A DNA stretch of 46,314 nt. Origin: a virus (taxonomy: Duplodnaviria; Heunggongvirae; Uroviricota; Caudoviricetes). The translations under genes were made by a program, and so were the position numbers. The stretch lies in IMG/VR virus record IMGVR_UViG_2909303794_000006, one strand, 5' to 3'. Under the pieces are notes generated by a model. It did not search any database. It had not been told where the DNA came from and worked only from the letters and a program-made list of their open reading frames with translations. Below, one piece after another: positions 16,743-28,151 of this stretch (position 1 is its first letter; each line of letters opens with the position of its first letter).

Positions 16743-17018
16743 TTACTCAATAAAGATCATTGGCTTACCGTTAAAGCGTTCATGCCGTGTGACCGTCCAT
16801 TGTTGTCCGTCATAAACAACGCGATCCCCGCGCCGTGGGCGGTATCCCGAAGAAAACACCACCAGAGAGACCGCAGGTCCGGACAGAGCATTCAGCTCTG
16901 CCAGTGTTTCTCCCGGGATCACAGTCATATCGGCATCATTAATCGAGGCTGTCTTTCCCATCTTTCTGACCGTGATCGTATCCATACGCGCTGCCAGCCG
17001 GGAAAAGGGATCAGACAT
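16743..17018 (-). CDS. head-tail connector / head completion protein in the FII position (Gifsy-2-like family)
   Basis: 91-aa ORF between head genes and Z; not lambda FII by sequence. Confidence 0.55.
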   Translation of the reverse strand: MSDPFSRLAARMDTITVRKMGKTASINDADMTVIPGETLAELNALSGPAVSLVVFSSGYRPRRGDRVVYDGQQWTVTRHERFNGKPMIFIE

Positions 17019-17334
17019 TGAGTTTTACCGGCACTTCTTCTGCACTGGTTCCGGCATCTGCCCAGACAACCCCGACCAGCGGATCAGAGCCGCTGTTAGT
17101 CAGCTGAACTTTTCCTGACTTCAGATAAACCTTCTTACCCGTTTTCATGTCATCCGTTTTCAGCTTAGGCAGCATAAACACACCTTCGGTCATGCCGTCG
17201 CCTGTTTCACCCTGTGGAATATCGGTCAGCGCCACCGCAAAAACATCACCCACCTGCACCAGATCTCCGCTGCTGATGGCTGCACTGGCAACAATCGCCA
17301 CCGTTTTTCCTTCTTCTACAAAATTCTTTGCCAT
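17011..17334 (-). CDS. small head-associated protein (possible decoration/cement protein)
   Basis: 107-aa ORF directly downstream of the capsid gene; GGAGA Shine-Dalgarno. Confidence 0.5.
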   Translation of the reverse strand: MAKNFVEEGKTVAIVASAAISSGDLVQVGDVFAVALTDIPQGETGDGMTEGVFMLPKLKTDDMKTGKKVYLKSGKVQLTNSGSDPLVGVVWADAGTSAEEVPVKLNV

Positions 17335-17377: not shown

Positions 17378-17400
17378 AAAAAAGCCCTTACGGGCCATCA
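17378..17400 (-). terminator. possible terminator/stabilising hairpin after the capsid gene
   Basis: gccc-ttac-gggc followed on minus strand by T7. Confidence 0.4.
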
Positions 17401-17419: not shown

Positions 17420-19378
17420 TTACGCCGTACATTTCACCAGACCGCGGTGATCAACTGGCGCGACACCGGCGTCAATACGCACTTTCGTTGTCACGCCATC
17501 CACACTGAAGCCCTCCATCTGATCAATATATGGCGTATCCACACCGTTGAGATAAGCCACTTCAATCGTATCGGAGCCTTTTGACGCAGCCAGGTAGAAG
17601 GTGGTCTGGCTGTTATCATCAAGACGAGGCTCTGCAATAACGGTCGCAAAATCTTTCACCGGGTTAATAATACCGGCGTTAATGTCAGCCCCCTTGACAC
17701 TTGAGGAGCGAATGACCTGGTTAGCAACAGACTCCATCGCCGTCGGTACCAGTACGAACGCAGGACGAATATTCAGATGACGCTCCCCCTCTTTCTGAAC
17801 GCGCATCAACTGGCGGGCTTTATCCAGCGATGCCACGTCCATTGCAGCGCTCTCCAGTACGTTTGCATGTTTCGCTTTATCGAACAGACTTACATTATCT
17901 GTGGAGATTTTCGGGTTAGACGTCAGAATGGCATAAACCAGATCGGCAATAGTGGATTTCGCCGCACGGCCCAGTTTCATCGGGACATCGGTCAGCATAT
18001 TCAGATCATCATTGATAATGGCCTGACGGGTGATACTGAACAGCTCGCCATAGGTCGCCAGTGCAATAGTGGCCTGTTTATCTCCGGTGGTGACGTATTT
18101 ATATTCCGCCCCTTCACGCACCTGACGCAGAGCACTGAAGCCCCCCATACCCACACGATGGGCAATTTTAAAATCAGACAACTGACCTTTCCGCGTCCAC
18201 TGTTCATAGGTTTCAGGGGCATCTTCCCAGCCCTGCAGAATGGCTTTGTTCGCAACATCCAGCAGAATATTACCGAAGTCAGACGTACTGTGTGTGAACG
18301 CCGCACCGACCATCTGCATCGGGTTATAACCGGAAACCCCAATACCCCGTTCAGTCAGTGACATACGGGCATATTCACGCAGGGTCATCCCGTTGTAGAC
18401 ATTATCACGTTCGGTTTTTTCAAATCCGGCACGCGCCATCAGCGCCTGGCGGATCCCGTCCCCCACAAAATTACCGTTACCGGCATAAATATGAGCCGGG
18501 GTATTTTTATTGGATGGCGTGGACTCGCGCCCCATCTCGTTCAACAGCTTTTCGCGGGCCTGCTCCAGCGAACATTCAGGATCGGCAAGACACTGAGCCT
18601 GCAGCATCTGATAACGCCCGCCAAACATGGCAAACAGATCATTAATACCATTTACACGCGCTTTTTGCTCTGCCAGTACCTGCGCACGGATACTGTTTTC
18701 ATCCACCACGGGTGCTGCTGCCTGCACTGGCGTCCGGGAAGCTGCAGGTTCATTATCCTGTACGCGTGGAGCACTGTTGCGTGGCGGAGTAATCATGTTT
18801 CGAATGGATTCCGGCATCTTTTTAAATTCCTCTGTACGTTTTGACTGAATACATGCCATTGCCTTAACGGCTGGCGTCACCTGATCAGCAAATCCCTGTG
18901 CCAGACATTCGGCACCGGACATCCAGGTCTCATCCGCCAGCATGGCAGCAATTTCATCGGTGGTTTTCCCGGTTTTCTGTGCATAAGCGGGTAACAGAAC
19001 CGCCTCAACTTTATCGAGCAGGTCGGCATAGGTGCGCATGTCCTCCGCATCACCGCCCGTAAAGCCAAATGGTTTATGAATCATCATGAAGGTGTTTTCC
19101 GGCATAATGACCGGGTTTCCCACCATCGCAATGACCGACGCCATTGATGCCGCCACACCGTCGACATAAACGGTAATGGACGCACCATGTGTTTTCAGCG
19201 CATTAAAAATGGCGATGCCTTCAAAGACATCGCCACCCGGTGAATTGATATGGAGATTAATGTGGGTGATATCGCCCAGTGCATTCAGATCACTGATAAA
19301 CTGCTTCGCTGTAACACCCCAGAAACCAATCTCGTCATAAATATAAATATCCGCGTCACTCTGGTGACCAGCCTGCAT
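17420..19378 (-). CDS. fused prohead protease (ClpP/S49-like) - linker - HK97-fold major capsid protein
   Basis: N-terminal INSPGGDVFEGIAIFNALK protease motif, Pro/Ala-rich middle, C-terminal capsid-like domain; start at Met88 (MQAGHQSD...). Confidence 0.75.
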   Translation of the reverse strand: MQAGHQSDADIYIYDEIGFWGVTAKQFISDLNALGDITHINLHINSPGGDVFEGIAIFNALKTHGASITVYVDGVAASMASVIAMVGNPVIMPENTFMMIHKPFGFTGGDAEDMRTYADLLDKVEAVLLPAYAQKTGKTTDEIAAMLADETWMSGAECLAQGFADQVTPAVKAMACIQSKRTEEFKKMPESIRNMITPPRNSAPRVQDNEPAASRTPVQAAAPVVDENSIRAQVLAEQKARVNGINDLFAMFGGRYQMLQAQCLADPECSLEQAREKLLNEMGRESTPSNKNTPAHIYAGNGNFVGDGIRQALMARAGFEKTERDNVYNGMTLREYARMSLTERGIGVSGYNPMQMVGAAFTHSTSDFGNILLDVANKAILQGWEDAPETYEQWTRKGQLSDFKIAHRVGMGGFSALRQVREGAEYKYVTTGDKQATIALATYGELFSITRQAIINDDLNMLTDVPMKLGRAAKSTIADLVYAILTSNPKISTDNVSLFDKAKHANVLESAAMDVASLDKARQLMRVQKEGERHLNIRPAFVLVPTAMESVANQVIRSSSVKGADINAGIINPVKDFATVIAEPRLDDNSQTTFYLAASKGSDTIEVAYLNGVDTPYIDQMEGFSVDGVTTKVRIDAGVAPVDHRGLVKCTA

Positions 19379-19391
19379 CCTGAACCAGGAA

Positions 19392-20900
19392 TTATTCTTC
19401 GGACTGGTCGTCGGTGTACTGCGGCTCCTGTCGTTTCGTTGCGGCACTGCTGCCTCCTTTATCACTGGCCGGATCGGTATCAAATACCAGGTCCAGCTTG
19501 CGGTTTTCATCAATTTCGGCCTTGCGCCGACGTTTGACATCATCCGGATTACGACCACCTGCACGTACCCAGTCTGATTCTGTCGCCGCTCCACCACGAA
19601 TCTGGATTTTCCAGGCCTCAGCCTCCTTAACAGGGTCAATCCACGGCATCACCGGTCCGGAATACACCGCGGTATACAGTGAAGAACGGTCAAGATCGCG
19701 GGGTAGCCTGATAACACCGGATGCCACAGCCTGTTTCAGCCAGGCACGATACATCGGGCGGGTGACGGCACCAATAAACCAGTCCTGCAGGATCAGGTAG
19801 CCATCAGTGGATTCAACCAGCTCCTGACGCTGGGCGCTGTAAGTGCCGTTATAGTTGCGCGCTGTACTGGAAAAACTCAGACGACTGCCCGCCGCCACGG
19901 CACGCAACTGACCATTACGAAAAGTTTCAAGGTTAGGATTTGGGCGATCCGACTTCACCATTCCGATTTCTTCGCCGGGTTTCAGATCGTCGTAAATAAT
20001 GCCTGGCTGAATGGTAAGCTCGCGTTCATTCTCCTTGCTGTCATTACCATCCGTTTCATAGCTCTGTCCGTCGCCTTTGCGGATGTACATCCCCAGAGCA
20101 GCGGCGATCCTTGCTGCAGTCAGCTCAGAATCTTCATACTCTTTCAGGGCGCTGAGGCGGATCAGCACACCGGACAATAAAGACGTCCCGCGCATCTGGT
20201 GCAGACGGCGAACAAATTTAAGATGCAGCATTCGCTCTGCATCCACTTCTTTGGTTTCCATCTGCCGTCCGGATACAGGACGACTTTTATACACCAGATA
20301 TTTTTCGGGACGCCCCCAGTCATCAACAAACACGCCCTGATTCAGCCTGTTGCTCTCATCACTGGTCATGGGAATAAAGTCCGGCTCAAGCGCCTCCAGC
20401 CAGAAATGAACACCGGCAGAAGGCGTCAGGCTGTTTATGCGCCCGGAAACCATCTGGGCAAACACCTCACCATCGCGCAGCCAGGTACGCAGCATCAGAC
20501 GTTCCAGCATCGGACGGGTAAACTGCCCGGTGACCTCCGGACTGACAGACCATTCACTCCATCGGGTACGTATCTCCGCTGCCAGATCACGGGCAATGGC
20601 CCCATTGCGTAATACCGGATGTGGCTCGACAATAATCCCGTTTTTCCCCACCACCCGTTCTTCCAGCTTGTCAAATACACCAATGACCAGATCGTGGTTG
20701 TTATCAAGGTAACGGGCCTGCTCACGTAACGACACGGCCCCGTACTGGCTTAACTGGTCGGCAGTTCGGTTCTCCCGTCGGGCTTTGTGTGTCCGCGTCG
20801 TTTTTACGGCCTCATAAGCCTGGATCACCGCACGGGAACGCAGCCTTGCCGCTTTCCATCCTGGTGAAAAAACGCCAATCACATCATCAAGAATTGCCAT
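19392..20900 (-). CDS. portal protein
   Basis: 502-aa portal-like ORF; start ATG overlaps W stop (TGATG). Confidence 0.85.
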   Translation of the reverse strand: MAILDDVIGVFSPGWKAARLRSRAVIQAYEAVKTTRTHKARRENRTADQLSQYGAVSLREQARYLDNNHDLVIGVFDKLEERVVGKNGIIVEPHPVLRNGAIARDLAAEIRTRWSEWSVSPEVTGQFTRPMLERLMLRTWLRDGEVFAQMVSGRINSLTPSAGVHFWLEALEPDFIPMTSDESNRLNQGVFVDDWGRPEKYLVYKSRPVSGRQMETKEVDAERMLHLKFVRRLHQMRGTSLLSGVLIRLSALKEYEDSELTAARIAAALGMYIRKGDGQSYETDGNDSKENERELTIQPGIIYDDLKPGEEIGMVKSDRPNPNLETFRNGQLRAVAAGSRLSFSSTARNYNGTYSAQRQELVESTDGYLILQDWFIGAVTRPMYRAWLKQAVASGVIRLPRDLDRSSLYTAVYSGPVMPWIDPVKEAEAWKIQIRGGAATESDWVRAGGRNPDDVKRRRKAEIDENRKLDLVFDTDPASDKGGSSAATKRQEPQYTDDQSEE

Positions 20901-21112
20901 CAGAACCTCGCCAGCCGGTACCCGGGATGCCCACGTCGTCGTGTAATCAGAGCCGCAAGGCGGCGCTCCCACTCCTGCCGCCCCTGCCGGATCTCAGATA
21001 AGTTTTCCATGGTCATCTGCTGACCATTAAAAGTGACGGATTTTCCGTCAAGCACCGCCATTTCAGCTTCCGTATAACGCTGAATCATGGCTTCAATATC
21101 ATTCTGATTCAT
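20900..21112 (-). CDS. W: head-tail joining protein W-like
   Basis: 70 aa, resembles lambda gpW; ATGA overlap with terminase stop; GGAGG upstream. Confidence 0.7.
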   Translation of the reverse strand: MNQNDIEAMIQRYTEAEMAVLDGKSVTFNGQQMTMENLSEIRQGRQEWERRLAALITRRRGHPGYRLARF

Positions 21113-23211
21113 AACCATCCTCCGGAAGTCAGCCAGGGGTTAACATCGTCAGTTACTGTTTTCTTCCGTTTTTGTTTTTTAACAGGCGTGGATACCGGTT
21201 CCGGTGAGGGTGACGGTTCGGTACTGTCCGGGACACACTCCAGCCAGGTTTCCCGGCTCGCCCACTCCGGTGCATCCGGCCAGCGGATCTTTTCGTATCC
21301 ATGCAGAATGACCAGAGCCTCGGCATACACCATCAGGTCAAAAGCTTCGTTGGCACCGCGACCCGGCTTACTCCATTTCCCGTCACTGCTCCGCTCTTCA
21401 TACGTCAGTTCGTCGTAAAACCAGCTCCCCAGCCAGTCAGGGAAATGCACATAGCCGGGACCTGGCGAGTCACGCCATAACGCGTTATTCACCCGGTCTT
21501 TCAGGGCATCCGTCTGAAGAAGCCAGAGCGGCACATCACCTGCGGCCTGCGCCCGTCGGCCCGTTCGTCCGGTGTTATCAGGGAATGTACGGGTGATCAG
21601 TTTTGCGCGCCGGATGCTGTCGCCCTTAAACAGGTAAATACGTTTGCCAAGGCCATCACGACGGCAACGACGCCAGAATTTATAGGCATTATCAGTGACC
21701 CCGTCTTCACCGCCGGAGTCCACCGCCATTGCCATCAGTCGCATTTGTTGAGAAGGGTCGGAGGCCAGCGGCCAGCTTTTATGAAAAACATCCGTCAGCA
21801 GGACATCCCAGTCTTCCGGATAGCTGGCCGGATCAATTCGCTGGCTCTCCCCGTCGCTGTCACCGCGCAATGACTGCGTGATGTTGTAACGATCAATAAT
21901 CCAGCGTTCGCCACGGCTGCCATAGCCCGTTACCTGAACCACAAAACGGCGATGACGTCCCGCCTGCACATCCACTGTCGCCACAAGGAAATTAACGCCA
22001 TCCGGCACACTGCGGGAAGGAACTGGCTCTGCCCGCTGCTCAAGCAATTCACTTTTTCGTTGCTCCATGCTGGCGCGGGGAAGATAAGGTAATCCCCAGT
22101 CGGTATTGATAACCGCCCTGAGTGTCTCTTCACTTCCGGTTGTCTCGTATTCCTGTTCTGCAGTAAGCAGTTTGTAAACGAGTTGCGAGAGTGTCTGATA
22201 AGCAGCTGCCGGACCCTCCATCCAGAATGACGCAATACGTGAACGCCGGGGATCACCATAACGACTGCCATCTGCATTGATGGATTCACCATCCCGTAAC
22301 CAGACCCCACGTCCGTTCAGCTCGCGTTTTTGTTCAGGCAAAATCCGTCCTGAACAGGAAGGACACTGAATATAAGCCGCCTCACTTGCCAGCACAGGAT
22401 CGGCAATATCACGGAAACCAGCAACCACATCGCCGCAGGGCTGAAAATACTCACCACAGTGTGGACAGGGCCAGTACCAGCGACGGCGATCGCCACGGTT
22501 ATAGAGCGACAGGATCCCCGTGGTTGGTGGAGCCTCATGCGGTGAAGTCCGTCGCCATTTCACATCCTTCACATCCCTGCCGGGGGAACTCTCCACCAGC
22601 GTCATACCACTGGACATAAATGTGGTGGTACGTTTTGAGGCAAGAGAGAAGGCATCCCCCTCACCATCAATATCTTCCGGAAAACGGTCATAATCCGTCA
22701 GCGCCACGCATTTATAATCTGATGAAGACATGATATTGACTGACGGCCAGCCGATTTTCAGGTAGTTGCCAGCAAGGAATGTTCTGTCATAAACGTTGTT
22801 GTCATTTTTGTTCGGACTCAGGCGACTGACCACTTCCGGGCTGACGCGAAACGTTCTGGCGAGTCGTTTTTTGGAGTGTTCGCGGGCTTTTTCCTCCGTC
22901 ATCTGAATGATCAGCATATCAGCAGGATCGCAAATCACGTTGTAAATCACCCAGCCGTCAATCAGGCCGATAGTCTTGCCGGTTCGTGCCGGGCCAACAA
23001 ATATCACTGCGTCGTATTCACGCGAGGCCAGGCAGTTCATAGGCTCAATAACATACGGTGCCACCAGCGGATCCCACGGGACTGAGTTCCCTGCCCCCAT
23101 GGGCACCCGCATATACTGAGCAACGGCATCAGCAACCCGCATTCGTCTCGGTGCGCGAAGGATATAACCTGAATCGGTTCGTGCTGCCTTTGCGGTTTCC
23201 TGATTCAGCAT
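21109..23211 (-). CDS. terminase large subunit (GpA family)
   Basis: 700-aa ORF with ATPase P-loop region (GPARTGKT) and WYWPCPHCGEYFQ motif. Confidence 0.9.
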   Translation of the reverse strand: MLNQETAKAARTDSGYILRAPRRMRVADAVAQYMRVPMGAGNSVPWDPLVAPYVIEPMNCLASREYDAVIFVGPARTGKTIGLIDGWVIYNVICDPADMLIIQMTEEKAREHSKKRLARTFRVSPEVVSRLSPNKNDNNVYDRTFLAGNYLKIGWPSVNIMSSSDYKCVALTDYDRFPEDIDGEGDAFSLASKRTTTFMSSGMTLVESSPGRDVKDVKWRRTSPHEAPPTTGILSLYNRGDRRRWYWPCPHCGEYFQPCGDVVAGFRDIADPVLASEAAYIQCPSCSGRILPEQKRELNGRGVWLRDGESINADGSRYGDPRRSRIASFWMEGPAAAYQTLSQLVYKLLTAEQEYETTGSEETLRAVINTDWGLPYLPRASMEQRKSELLEQRAEPVPSRSVPDGVNFLVATVDVQAGRHRRFVVQVTGYGSRGERWIIDRYNITQSLRGDSDGESQRIDPASYPEDWDVLLTDVFHKSWPLASDPSQQMRLMAMAVDSGGEDGVTDNAYKFWRRCRRDGLGKRIYLFKGDSIRRAKLITRTFPDNTGRTGRRAQAAGDVPLWLLQTDALKDRVNNALWRDSPGPGYVHFPDWLGSWFYDELTYEERSSDGKWSKPGRGANEAFDLMVYAEALVILHGYEKIRWPDAPEWASRETWLECVPDSTEPSPSPEPVSTPVKKQKRKKTVTDDVNPWLTSGGWL

Positions 23212-23705
23212 TACTCCTCCTGCTGTAATTCCTCCTCATCATCCGCACCTGCTTCAGTCACCCGCAGGGCTATCTGATCGCGCAGATCATCAATAATGGA
23301 CTGAACACGGCTCACAGCGGCAGGCTGCAGACCGCAGTCACGTTCAAGAATATCCGGTAATGTCTCCAGCACCTGCACGACCGCTTTTGCCCAGATGGCA
23401 AACTCCCGTCTGACATCACTGGCCGGAATGAGTTGTGCCGTTTCCTGTTCGAACTTAAGACGCTCACGTTCAGACTGATACCAGGCTTTGCGCTCATGCG
23501 CGTCCATTTCGCCTTCTGCAACCGGCGGTGGTAATGCCAGAAATGCCGACACAATATCAACCACCCGATAAAGCTTGAGGTTGCTTTCATGCCCCCCTGC
23601 AACGGGTAGATTTTGCAGCCTTGCCGCAGCAGTCTGGCGATGTACACCTGACAGTGCCGCCAGTTGACTGATATTCAGCGTCAGATTTTTTAACTCTCGA
23701 TCCAT
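23211..23705 (-). CDS. terminase small subunit (N-terminal HTH)
   Basis: 164-aa acidic-tailed ORF immediately upstream of and overlapping the large subunit. Confidence 0.8.
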   Translation of the reverse strand: MDRELKNLTLNISQLAALSGVHRQTAAARLQNLPVAGGHESNLKLYRVVDIVSAFLALPPPVAEGEMDAHERKAWYQSERERLKFEQETAQLIPASDVRREFAIWAKAVVQVLETLPDILERDCGLQPAAVSRVQSIIDDLRDQIALRVTEAGADDEEELQQEE

Positions 23706-25730: not shown

Positions 25731-26532
25731 CCTGATGCATAAACGTCATAATACCTGACTGTTATGATTGACAATAATGATAATGTTTATATAGAAAGGT
25801 TCCCGATGTGTGTTACATATCATTTCTCCACGGGGAATATCCCCACGCCAGCGCAGACTCTTTTACCCGTTCTCTTCTGCGCTGGCTCTTTTTTATTATG
25901 CTGCTGCATTTACCTCTGGCACCAGGCTTTCTATCTCAACACAATACGTGGTACTTCTTGTAACCAATATCATAACGATTAATCGACATAGAATTTCTCC
26001 CGTGTACAGGAACAGAGTTAAAAAGCCGGAACCGGAATCAAATCACAGGATGACCATCTGCCAGTGGCAGGTCATAAAAAAAAGGCCGCGCCATGCGCAG
26101 CCAGAACTCACAAGGAAAATGATAGAAGGAAATAACATTAGTGATGTACGCATGGCGCCTCCCGCTAAGTTCTGCAATGATCAAACAGAACTCGCTACGT
26201 GCCCTTAAAACTCGATCATTTAGCCCCTCCAAGGAGGATTCACCATGCGGTTGATTTTTTAATAAACAGTAAACAAAAAAGTCAAGAATTATTCATTCTG
26301 TTCTTTCATCATCGGCCACAGCAATACCACAATGCCGCAGACCAGAGCGCCATCAGTCAGTACCAACATTATCCTGCTGGTGAAATCCATCATCACCATC
26401 ACTAAAAGCAGGATCACAACAGCAAGCAGACACAGTTTATAAAACAATGTTCAGAAAACGCATTCAGCATGCCTAAGGTTCTATTCCTACGAATAGCCAA
26501 CTTGCAACTTAAAATATTATTTATGCAGCCAA

Positions 26533-27291
26533 TTAAATTCTGGTCCTTACAATATCAACCTGAAGATTCTTATCTTGTGCTGATTGATAAATGACAAACC
26601 TTTTACTACCTGCATTGAAAGAAGTAGACAAAACCAGACAATTATCATAACGAGCAAGAACATAATACCAACCATCATTATAATTAATCATTTCATATTC
26701 TTTCTTAAACTGCGGTTTGTAATATCCTGTCAGAAATGAAAAAAGCCAGAAATATGCCACAAAAGCAATCATCACAATCTCAAAAAAATGTTTTTTTATA
26801 AATGGCTTATCATAGAAGCATGATACCGATAAAAATCGCCCATAAGATCTTATCGAAATTGTAACCGCCAGCGCAATCGCTGCTGACAGTAGCAAAAGAG
26901 GTACCTGAATCTTCTGTCTCAATATAGAAAACTCAATAATTGCCGGCACAAACAATAATTCCACAGCAAAATAAAGGCGAAATACATTTAGCTCTTGCAT
27001 AGAATGTTTTCTTTTCACTGCGAAAAAGAATACAACACCAATACCCCAACCGATAAGAAATATAGCAATGACGATAACTGCAAAAAATAAACTTCTGGCA
27101 ACATCATCAACACCTGCACCTACAATCCACCATGGGAAGCCGTAGTAAAAAGAAGTACCCCATCCATAGAAATAAGCACTCCCCCATCCAAGGCATCCCA
27201 TGTAGGCAATAAAAAGTGAAGAACTCCTGAGCAGCGCACCATCCTTCATAACCACCCCAATACAAGATGATAACATTGGCTTACAACTCAT
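26533..27291 (-). CDS. AT-rich polytopic membrane protein of unknown function (late-operon moron); start may be internal Met15 at 27249
   Basis: 252-aa ORF, several hydrophobic segments rich in W/Y/F/G plus C-terminal soluble tail; GC visibly lower than flanking phage genes. Confidence 0.65.
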   Translation of the reverse strand: MSCKPMLSSCIGVVMKDGALLRSSSLFIAYMGCLGWGSAYFYGWGTSFYYGFPWWIVGAGVDDVARSLFFAVIVIAIFLIGWGIGVVFFFAVKRKHSMQELNVFRLYFAVELLFVPAIIEFSILRQKIQVPLLLLSAAIALAVTISIRSYGRFLSVSCFYDKPFIKKHFFEIVMIAFVAYFWLFSFLTGYYKPQFKKEYEMINYNDGWYYVLARYDNCLVLSTSFNAGSKRFVIYQSAQDKNLQVDIVRTRI

Positions 27292-27527: not shown

Positions 27528-28151
27528 CTAACGTGTGATCGCATTCAAAATGTTGTCTGCGATTGACTCTTCCTTGTGGCATTGCACAACCAGAGCGTCA
27601 TACAGCGGCTTAACAGTGCGTGACCAGGTGGGTTGGGTAAGGTTTGGGATTAGCATCGTCACAGCGCGATATGCGGCGCTTGCTGGCATTCTTGAATAAC
27701 CGACGCCTTTACATCTTCCGCACTCTTTCTCAGCAACTCTCCCCCACAGCTCTGTTTTGGCTATATCAACCGCACGGCCTGTACCGTGGCAATCTCTGCA
27801 TCTTGCGCCCGGCGTAGCGGCACTACGGCAATAATCCGCATAAGCGAATGTTGCGAGCACTTGCAGTACCTTTGCCTTAGTATTTCCTTCAAGCTTTGCC
27901 ACGCCACGGTATTTCCCCGATACCTTGTGTGCAAATTGCATCAGATAGTTGATAGCCTTTTGTTTGTCGTTCTGGCTGAGTTCGTGCTTACCACAGAATA
28001 CAGCCATTCCGAATCCGGCTTGTGATTGCGCCATCCCCATAGCAGCCATCACATCAGTACCGGAAAGAGAGTCAGAAGCCGTGGCCCGTGGTGAGTCGCT
28101 CATCATCGGGCTTTTTGGCGAATGAAATTTAGCTATGCTTTCGAGTCTCAT
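27528..28151 (-). CDS. Q: late antiterminator Q (lambda type)
   Basis: 207 aa, near-identical to lambda Q. Confidence 0.95.

Follow-up and report, generated by a model that had tools for sequence, protein, structure and literature searches.

A ClpP-like protease, a putative scaffolding segment and an HK97-fold coat domain on one chain in a head module of the Gifsy-2 type

Introduction

Whether a prohead protease, a linker and a capsid protein are encoded as a single polypeptide, and to which lineage such a head module belongs, are the questions raised by a minus-strand open reading frame (ORF) of a virus of the Caudoviricetes (IMG/VR record IMGVR_UViG_2909303794_000006), the whole 46,314-nucleotide (nt) stretch of which was analysed and is called the window hereafter. 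An earlier note, made from the letters alone, had placed the ORF at 17420-19378 and had read it as a ClpP/S49-type protease domain, a Pro/Ala-rich linker and an HK97-fold capsid domain, in place of the separate genes C, Nu3 and E of lambda and in a Gifsy/HK97-like head lineage joined to a lambda tail; cis-processing during head maturation had been taken to follow from it. In the follow-up reported here, one chain was found to carry, from the N- to the C-terminus, a ClpP-like protease, a Pro/Ala linker, a helical domain and an HK97-fold coat, and the gene is very probably the 'tripartite' capsid gene of a Gifsy-2-type lambdoid phage or prophage. Residue numbers refer to a chain of 675 amino acids (aa) unless the 652-aa numbering is stated.

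Results

On the minus strand, the ORF runs without interruption to a stop codon at 17420..17422. The parts of its product were delimited as follows.

17420..19447, minus strand: protease/scaffold/major capsid fusion coding sequence, 675 aa plus stop, an uninterrupted ORF matched by NF045540 and with an identical span in RefSeq
18875..19312, minus strand: ClpP-like (MEROPS S14) serine protease domain by the Pfam CLP_protease and NF045542 matches, residues 46-191
18704..18787, minus strand: flexible Pro/Ala-rich linker PPRNSAPRVQDNEPAASRTPVQAAAPVV, 28 residues, residues 221-248
18518..18703, minus strand: three-helix domain of the AlphaFold model, putative scaffolding (delta-like) segment, residues 249-310
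18470..18517, minus strand: variable loop, candidate maturation-cleavage region, residues 311-326 (model confidence about 62)
17423..18469, minus strand: major capsid protein (MCP) region, residues 327-675, with the Phage_capsid_4 core at 17432..18325

The chain was recognised as a whole by two family resources. The model NF045540 ('ClpP-like prohead protease/major capsid protein fusion protein') scored 985.3 bits against a cut-off of 475, with residues 32-674 aligned to profile positions 2-651 of 652, and PHROG 133 gave one continuous match over residues 1-652 (652-aa numbering) with 1184 bits. By nucleotide search, the same unbroken ORF was present in 28 phage records (16 records at 98.4-99.5% identity; the copies of phi458, mEp460 and cdtI at 99.5%), and by protein search at least 80% of the product was covered in 74 phage records of Escherichia, Salmonella, Klebsiella, Providencia and Pseudomonas, the last at 57% identity. 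The fusion gene was also found at 80 IMG/VR loci and, under the fusion-protein name of the Prokaryotic Genome Annotation Pipeline (PGAP), in 2124 of the 5426 complete E. coli genomes (about 40%), in up to six copies. An exhaustive search of the C-terminal 445 residues against 50%-identity representatives matched 10,634 clusters, and a ClpP domain and an MCP domain occurred together in 84 of the best 147 clusters (50% identity). Ratios of nonsynonymous to synonymous divergence (dN/dS) of 0.03-0.32 were obtained for the protease, helical and capsid parts, every folded part thus being under purifying selection. Both the protease and the capsid domain of the earlier note were recovered by domain search on one polypeptide, as matches that do not overlap and whose E-values lie well outside what chance would give, and no BLASTP similarity of the fusion protein to C, Nu3 or E of lambda was obtained, in line with their replacement.

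For the protease domain, the Pfam family CLP_protease (PF00574) was matched at residues 23-168 (652-aa numbering) with an E-value of 6.6e-36 and 124.3 bits against a gathering cut-off of 20.2, NF045542 ('head maturation protease, ClpP-related') gave 216 bits, and solved ClpP structures were matched by sequence search down to E 1e-15. No Pfam match to Peptidase_S49 was obtained in the fusion protein at E<=0.01, TIGR00706 SppA_dom scored 22.3 bits against a cut-off of 155, and Peptidase_S78 (the HK97 type) likewise had no Pfam match in it. On these profile matches, the N-terminal domain is classed as S14 ClpP-like and not as S49, so that the first half of the proposed ClpP/S49 label is kept and the second is dropped. 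The predicted catalytic residues were located by alignment with ClpP.

19145..19147, minus strand: predicted catalytic Ser101 in the motif GVAASMAS, aligned with the catalytic Ser of ClpP
19076..19078, minus strand: predicted catalytic His124 in the motif MMIHKP, aligned with MIHQP of ClpP
18929..18931, minus strand: Glu173 in the motif ETW, aligned with the third triad residue (Asp) of ClpP

Ser101 and His124 were invariant in the alignments A1 and A2, including all close and distant fused homologues examined. Glu173 was invariant in alignment A2, with ETW kept in the consensus of 109 representatives, and the adjacent Asp172 was not conserved.

For the capsid domain, Phage_capsid_4 of Pfam was matched with E 1.1e-54 at residues 352-649 (652-aa numbering), together with a weak match to Mu-like_gpT, and no Pfam match to Phage_capsid (PF05065, the HK97 family) was obtained in the fusion protein. 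An AlphaFold model of residues 211-675, built on the alignment of 109 diverse representatives, reached a mean predicted local distance difference test score (pLDDT) of 91.1 and consists of a disordered linker, a three-helix unit, a loop of lower confidence and a large alpha/beta domain. A run on the full 675 aa with 20 close relatives (75-96% identical) reached a mean pLDDT of 34.7 and was not used. By Foldseek, the model was matched with probability 1.00 to HK97 capsids (2ft1, 1ohg and 2gp1; Head II and Prohead II), to D3 (9ous), SaPI1 and other phage capsids and to encapsulins, with TM-scores on the target of 0.5-0.68, and predicted viral major capsid proteins of BFVD were matched down to 6e-20. 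The nearest solved proteins by sequence were Mu GpT-domain capsid proteins (8rkc, E 1.7e-4). The HK97 fold claimed for the capsid domain is therefore upheld by the model, and the C-terminal part is assigned, on model and profiles together, to an HK97-fold coat protein of the Phage_capsid_4/Mu-gpT-like sequence family and not of HK97's own.

Between protease and coat, Pro and Ala make up 43% of the linker PPRNSAPRVQDNEPAASRTPVQAAAPVV as against 16% of the whole protein. Its pLDDT of 52-57 is that of a disordered stretch, its dN/dS is about 0.39, and its length differs among homologues by many insertions and deletions, all of which are in frame. The three helices that follow (model residues 40-63, 70-78 and 84-97) have pLDDT values above 94 and a dN/dS of 0.08-0.29 over the domain, the scaffolding role of which is putative and drawn by analogy. 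At the variable loop of residues 311-326, Gifsy-2 and Fels-1 have insertions. Candidates for the maturation cleavage are this loop or the stretch from it to about residue 387, where the alignment with Mu-gpT-type coat proteins begins, and a mature coat of 38.0 or 31.4 kDa was computed for the candidate regions.

The probable start of the gene was sought by alignment of its upstream region with those of Gifsy-2, Fels-1, mEp213, 1720a-02, Providencia PSTCR8lys and Pseudomonas MD8.

19453..19459, minus strand: Shine-Dalgarno motif AAGGAGG, 5 nt upstream of the GTG at 19447..19445
19391..19447, minus strand: variable basic N-terminal extension, residues 1-19, in a frame that differs from that of the overlapped 3' end of the portal gene
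19382..19390, minus strand: conserved motif SW[F/Y], residues 20-22, upstream of the ATG at 19378

Translation from the ATG at 19378, as given in the earlier note, would yield 652 aa, and from the GTG at 19447, 69 nt (23 codons) upstream, 675 aa with a mass of 73.5 kDa. Ser and Trp of SW[F/Y] are invariant in the seven aligned phages and stand 3-5 residues before the Met encoded at 19378, and Gifsy-2, Fels-1 and Pseudomonas phage MD8 have Ile in place of this Met; translation must therefore start further upstream, where the GTG at 19447 is the nearest in-frame start. The duplex of AAGGAGG with the anti-Shine-Dalgarno sequence (-11.6 kcal/mol) is the strongest within the fusion gene, and the motif is also present in mEp213 and 1720a-02. 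RefSeq/PGAP gives the identical 675-aa span on a chromosome of E. coli, and 675 aa is also the length of the large NCBI clusters. Judged from these features, the GTG at 19447, and not the ATG at 19378, is most likely the true start. With the GTG start, the 3' end of the portal gene (stop at 19392) overlaps the fusion gene by 56 nt, out of frame. The N-terminal extension thus gained is weakly constrained, since its dN/dS is close to 1 (about 0.9-1.1 in comparison with 1720a-02, Gifsy-2 and MD8). An inverted repeat (TCCTG-GTT-CAGGA, 19378..19390) overlaps the SWFR codons directly next to the ATG at 19378. This ATG could be occluded by the repeat, consistent with a non-start role.

The fusion would be an artefact if separate protease and capsid genes had been joined by a sequencing error or by a recent mutation (frameshift or stop-loss), and this can be set aside almost with certainty. 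The same ORF recurs in the phage records (by nucleotide and by protein), IMG/VR loci, clusters and E. coli genomes counted above, that is, in thousands of independent sequences, its reading frame is always kept despite the varying linker length, and nothing was found in favour of an artefact. The 'split' relatives are the reverse case. At the locus L156 (2357..4332; GCA_000755365.1, BBMQ01000056), which lies in an apparent degraded prophage remnant, a frameshift has broken a relative of the fusion gene into two genes, 'ClpP' (201 aa) and 'capsid' (443 aa), and the locus L157 is a truncated contig. Gene callers restart at a conserved Met-Pro and therefore leave spurious 'unfused' proteins in databases. 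A catalytically dead ClpP-like domain, serving as a mere scaffold or spacer while any maturation cleavage is left to a host protease or another phage protease, is likewise very improbable, if not quite to the same degree. The Glu at position 173, where the triad of ClpP has Asp, speaks for it; yet the acidic member of a Ser-His-acid triad can be Glu, the catalytic Ser and His are invariant across the fused homologues examined, a dN/dS of 0.06-0.16 indicates strong purifying selection on the domain, and no second head protease gene lies between the terminase and the tail genes.

A functional protease on an authentic fused chain being preferred, the number of products made from the gene was considered, with one further start codon as the candidate.

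18815..18817, minus strand: in-frame ATG (Met211) after GAGGA, candidate internal start, judged unlikely to be used

In lambda C/Nu3 and Mu I/Z, two primary products are made by nested starts. By the same device, a protease-less scaffold-capsid chain of 50.7 kDa from Met211 would accompany the full chain from the GTG at 19447, and a protease would then be borne by just a fraction of the subunits; this is considered unlikely here. In each of the seven phages compared, the in-frame ATG stands exactly at the end of the protease module and is preceded by GAGGA or AGGAG at 9-11 nt, and homology to families with other proteases starts at this place (phrog_4523 from residue 186 in the 652-aa numbering, NF045541 from residue 222). 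By a rough estimate, moreover, 415 copies of the 36-42 kDa internal part would take up about half of a T=7 procapsid, a tight fit that is still possible. Met211 is, however, kept only in the close subfamily and is mostly Thr, Ala, Val or Ile among the 109 representatives, while the Pro after it is conserved in 97 of them. The spacing from GAGGA to the ATG is long, and GAGGA itself is accounted for by conserved Glu-Glu-Phe codons. Synonymous divergence (pS) at the site is normal (0.57-0.61 in comparison with mEp213 and Gifsy-2), and the stand-alone genes that start at the equivalent of Met211 are gene-calling artefacts. Codons 196-220 (18743..18862 as given) have a pS of 0.07 in comparison with 1720a-02, against 0.41 and 0.67 in the flanks; as the dip is seen with 1720a-02 but not with mEp213 or Gifsy-2, it is probably a small recombination patch and not a constrained element. 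There is accordingly little expectation that nested translation sets the protease-to-coat ratio in the procapsid, and if it did, this would apply to the enterobacterial/Pseudomonas subfamily and not to the whole family.

The related proteins P0130 and P0136 were considered as unfused genes starting at 'MP' and were rejected, the DNA being a frameshifted fused gene or a truncated 1.5-kb contig. A scan of viral contigs seeded with P0130 returned MD8/F10-like Pseudomonas loci only, all of which are identical at the site in question, so that no diversity was gained. The copy of the fusion gene in VT1-Sakai is interrupted by IS629.

Discussion

Taking the gene as a single-chain fusion read from the GTG at 19447, it was compared with the known head systems. 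STM1034.3n of Gifsy-2 is a full-length homologue (70.1% aa identity over query residues 1-651, 652-aa numbering) with the same order of ClpP-like protease, linker/scaffold and MCP. Synteny with Gifsy-2 is gene for gene from the terminase to the tape measure, including the small gene at the W position, the lambda-family portal, the cement protein and the tail genes Z/U/V/G/T/H. Gifsy-2 differs in the length of the protein (696 aa as annotated), in a longer, unrelated N-terminal extension, in insertions in the linker and the pre-capsid loop, and in its host, which is Salmonella and here E. coli. As judged from identity and gene order, this is a head module of the Gifsy-2 type. A virtually identical gene, with 98.8-99.5% nucleotide identity across the complete ORF, is carried by mEp460, cdtI, phi458, Tritos, Ayreon and PhiR55_1, with the same gene order around it in mEp460. 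In these E. coli phage records, the start is mostly placed at the ATG equivalent to 19378, and the gene is named 'protease/scaffold protein', 'Nu3' or 'major head protein'.

Of the Gifsy/HK97-like lineage proposed earlier, the Gifsy part holds, whereas the likeness to HK97 holds for the fold and not for the sequence families of the capsid and the protease (S78). The likenesses to HK97 are the fold of the coat protein, found by Foldseek, and the joining of scaffold to coat: gp5 of HK97 has an N-terminal scaffold-like (delta) segment fused to the coat, which is removed inside the prohead by the phage protease. The protease of HK97, gp4, is encoded by a separate gene and belongs to family S78, not to ClpP/S14; the MCP of HK97 belongs to a different Pfam family from that of the capsid domain in the window, and its capsid is cross-linked and has no cement protein, whereas the window module has one. 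Lambda shares the position in the late operon, between a lambda-family portal and the tail genes Z/U/V, the joining of protease to scaffold, and an external cement protein. Its protease is of family S49, its coat E is a separate gene, its Nu3 is made from a nested internal start, and its gpE also has the HK97 fold. The decoration protein of lambda belongs to the gpD family, and that of the window to Phage_cement_2. From HK97 and lambda alike, the window gene differs in its sequence families and in uniting protease, scaffold and coat in a single gene. As for the junction of this head with a lambda tail, the lambda-family tail was found as described, and a new mosaic joint was not: Gifsy-2 carries the same tail genes, and a lambda-family tail is therefore the normal architecture of the group.

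Fusions of an S78 protease with an MCP (NF045541 and phrog_4523) have a homologous scaffold and Phage_capsid_4 coat, with the protease likewise fused upstream; they differ in the N-terminal protease, which in P0236 and P0210 is Peptidase_S78 instead of ClpP. On the window protein, NF045541 gave 402 bits over residues 222-672, below its cut-off of 525. A Phage_capsid_4 coat fused to Peptidase_S78 or to an N-terminal domain without Pfam match was seen in other clusters (P0236 and P0210; also P0157, P0164, P0189 and P0199). The same coat family thus occurs with different N-terminal modules, so the protease module has either been swapped or been joined on separate occasions.

The assembly of the head can be proposed from the homology to Gifsy-2 and from the general HK97/lambda pathway. 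The C-terminal domains would build a T=7 procapsid shell around the portal, with the protease and the helical scaffold-like parts facing inward. The protease being fused and inward-facing, every subunit would bring its own tethered protease. Enclosed at high local concentration, the proteases would remove everything N-terminal of the coat domain, by cutting in the same chain or in its neighbours, which tethered proteases could cut equally well. The fragments would then exit, DNA packaging would expand the shell, and trimers of the 107-aa cement protein would bind outside. In such a scheme, the covalent fusion would substitute for the non-covalent targeting of protease and scaffold in HK97 and lambda. 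A passage in PMC8538268 gives Gifsy-2 a trimeric cement protein at the 3-fold axes and lambda a small trimeric decoration protein, and a passage in PMC8814770 gives the Gifsy-2 capsid as T=7.

Several points weigh against this reading of the gene and of its product. Cleavage, its site or sites and its course in cis or in trans are inferred. On processing in this gene family, the literature covered (to which Effantin et al. 2010 itself did not belong) yielded citing statements only, and the processing details of Gifsy-2 are taken from citing papers. The cement protein lies outside the lambda gpD sequence family, and the third triad position of the protease is Glu and not the Asp of ClpP. An IS21-family insertion in the early region may, finally, leave the prophage defective, so that this copy of the fusion would never be expressed in a viable phage.

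The fusion arrangement is already known. Effantin et al. 2010 (Virology 402:355) reportedly described the tripartite capsid gene of Gifsy-2; they are also reported to have modelled the mature Gifsy-2 capsid as an HK97-like coat with gpD-like trimers and to have proposed the middle region as scaffold. The arrangement also has its own NCBI family model. The fusion gene is among the commonest head genes of E. coli prophages and matters little as a discovery. Its practical value lies in annotation, many phage records misnaming the gene and starting it 23 codons late. Among the misleading deposited names are 'head-tail preconnector protein Nu3', 'head-tail preconnector protease C', 'terminase protein', 'putative protease' and 'major head protein', and with such names and late starts the coat protein of these phages is easily missed. 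The gene may also be taken as a design example, in which covalent linkage guarantees the co-packaging of protease and scaffold with the coat protein.

Genomic context

The late genes around the fusion gene were ordered as small terminase (23211..23705), gpA-type large terminase (21109..23211), a 72-aa gene at the position of lambda W, portal and fusion, followed by the 107-aa Phage_cement_2 protein, a 91-aa Gifsy-2-family/FII-like protein, Z, U, V, G/T and the tape measure.

19392..20972, minus strand: lambda-family portal protein (Pfam Phage_portal_2, 5.6e-82; 21% identical to lambda gpB)
17383..17396, minus strand: hairpin of high GC content (GGCCCGTAAGGGCT) with a T-run behind it, between the stop of the fusion gene and the cement gene
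17011..17334, minus strand: head decoration/cement protein, 107 aa (Phage_cement_2, 9e-21; PHROG 122, 'head decoration')
30042..31843, plus strand: IS21-family element in the early/nin region, with an IstA-like transposase (rve, 340 aa) and IstB (260 aa, Pfam 9.9e-112)

The cement protein is 61% identical to STM1034 of Gifsy-2; it had no Pfam gpD-family match and no BLASTP similarity to lambda D, and no meaningful match came from a sequence search of solved structures. By BLASTP, the fusion, cement and FII-like proteins were similar to none of lambda C, Nu3, D, E, FI and FII. The large terminase and the portal are 21-24% identical to those of lambda, and the tail proteins Z, U, V and G are 49%, 53%, 54% and 33% identical, respectively, with the Pfam families Minor_tail_Z, Phage_tail_U and lambda TTP represented among the tail genes. 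At the site homologous to the hairpin GGCCCGTAAGGGCT, the records of mEp460 and mEp213 have a rho-independent terminator annotated; in a late operon antiterminated by Q, the hairpin could be for attenuation or could stabilise the 3' end of an mRNA.

Identity to the mEp460/cdtI/phi458 group is 95-96% over about 20 kb in the late region, and identity to 2B8/434/lambda-type phages is about 94-95% in the early region; going by these values, the window is a lambdoid mosaic. The IS21-family element is oriented opposite to the neighbouring genes. Two ORFs without Pfam match (26533..27291, minus strand, 252 aa; 25810..26208, plus strand, 132 aa) lie in the stretch of lowest GC content of the window (0.385, positions 26001-27000), between the lysis region and the Q gene (27528..28151). 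On the minus strand, 3197..4510 and 4662..5261 encode a side tail fibre with collagen triple-helix repeats, in which the N- and C-terminal domains of prophage tail fibres are present, and an Ail/Lom protein of the outer membrane. A gene for a type III secretion effector of the NleG family (1396..2085, minus strand; Pfam 3.8e-44; GC content 0.42) lies downstream of the tail-fibre genes, a cargo typical of prophages of attaching-effacing E. coli.

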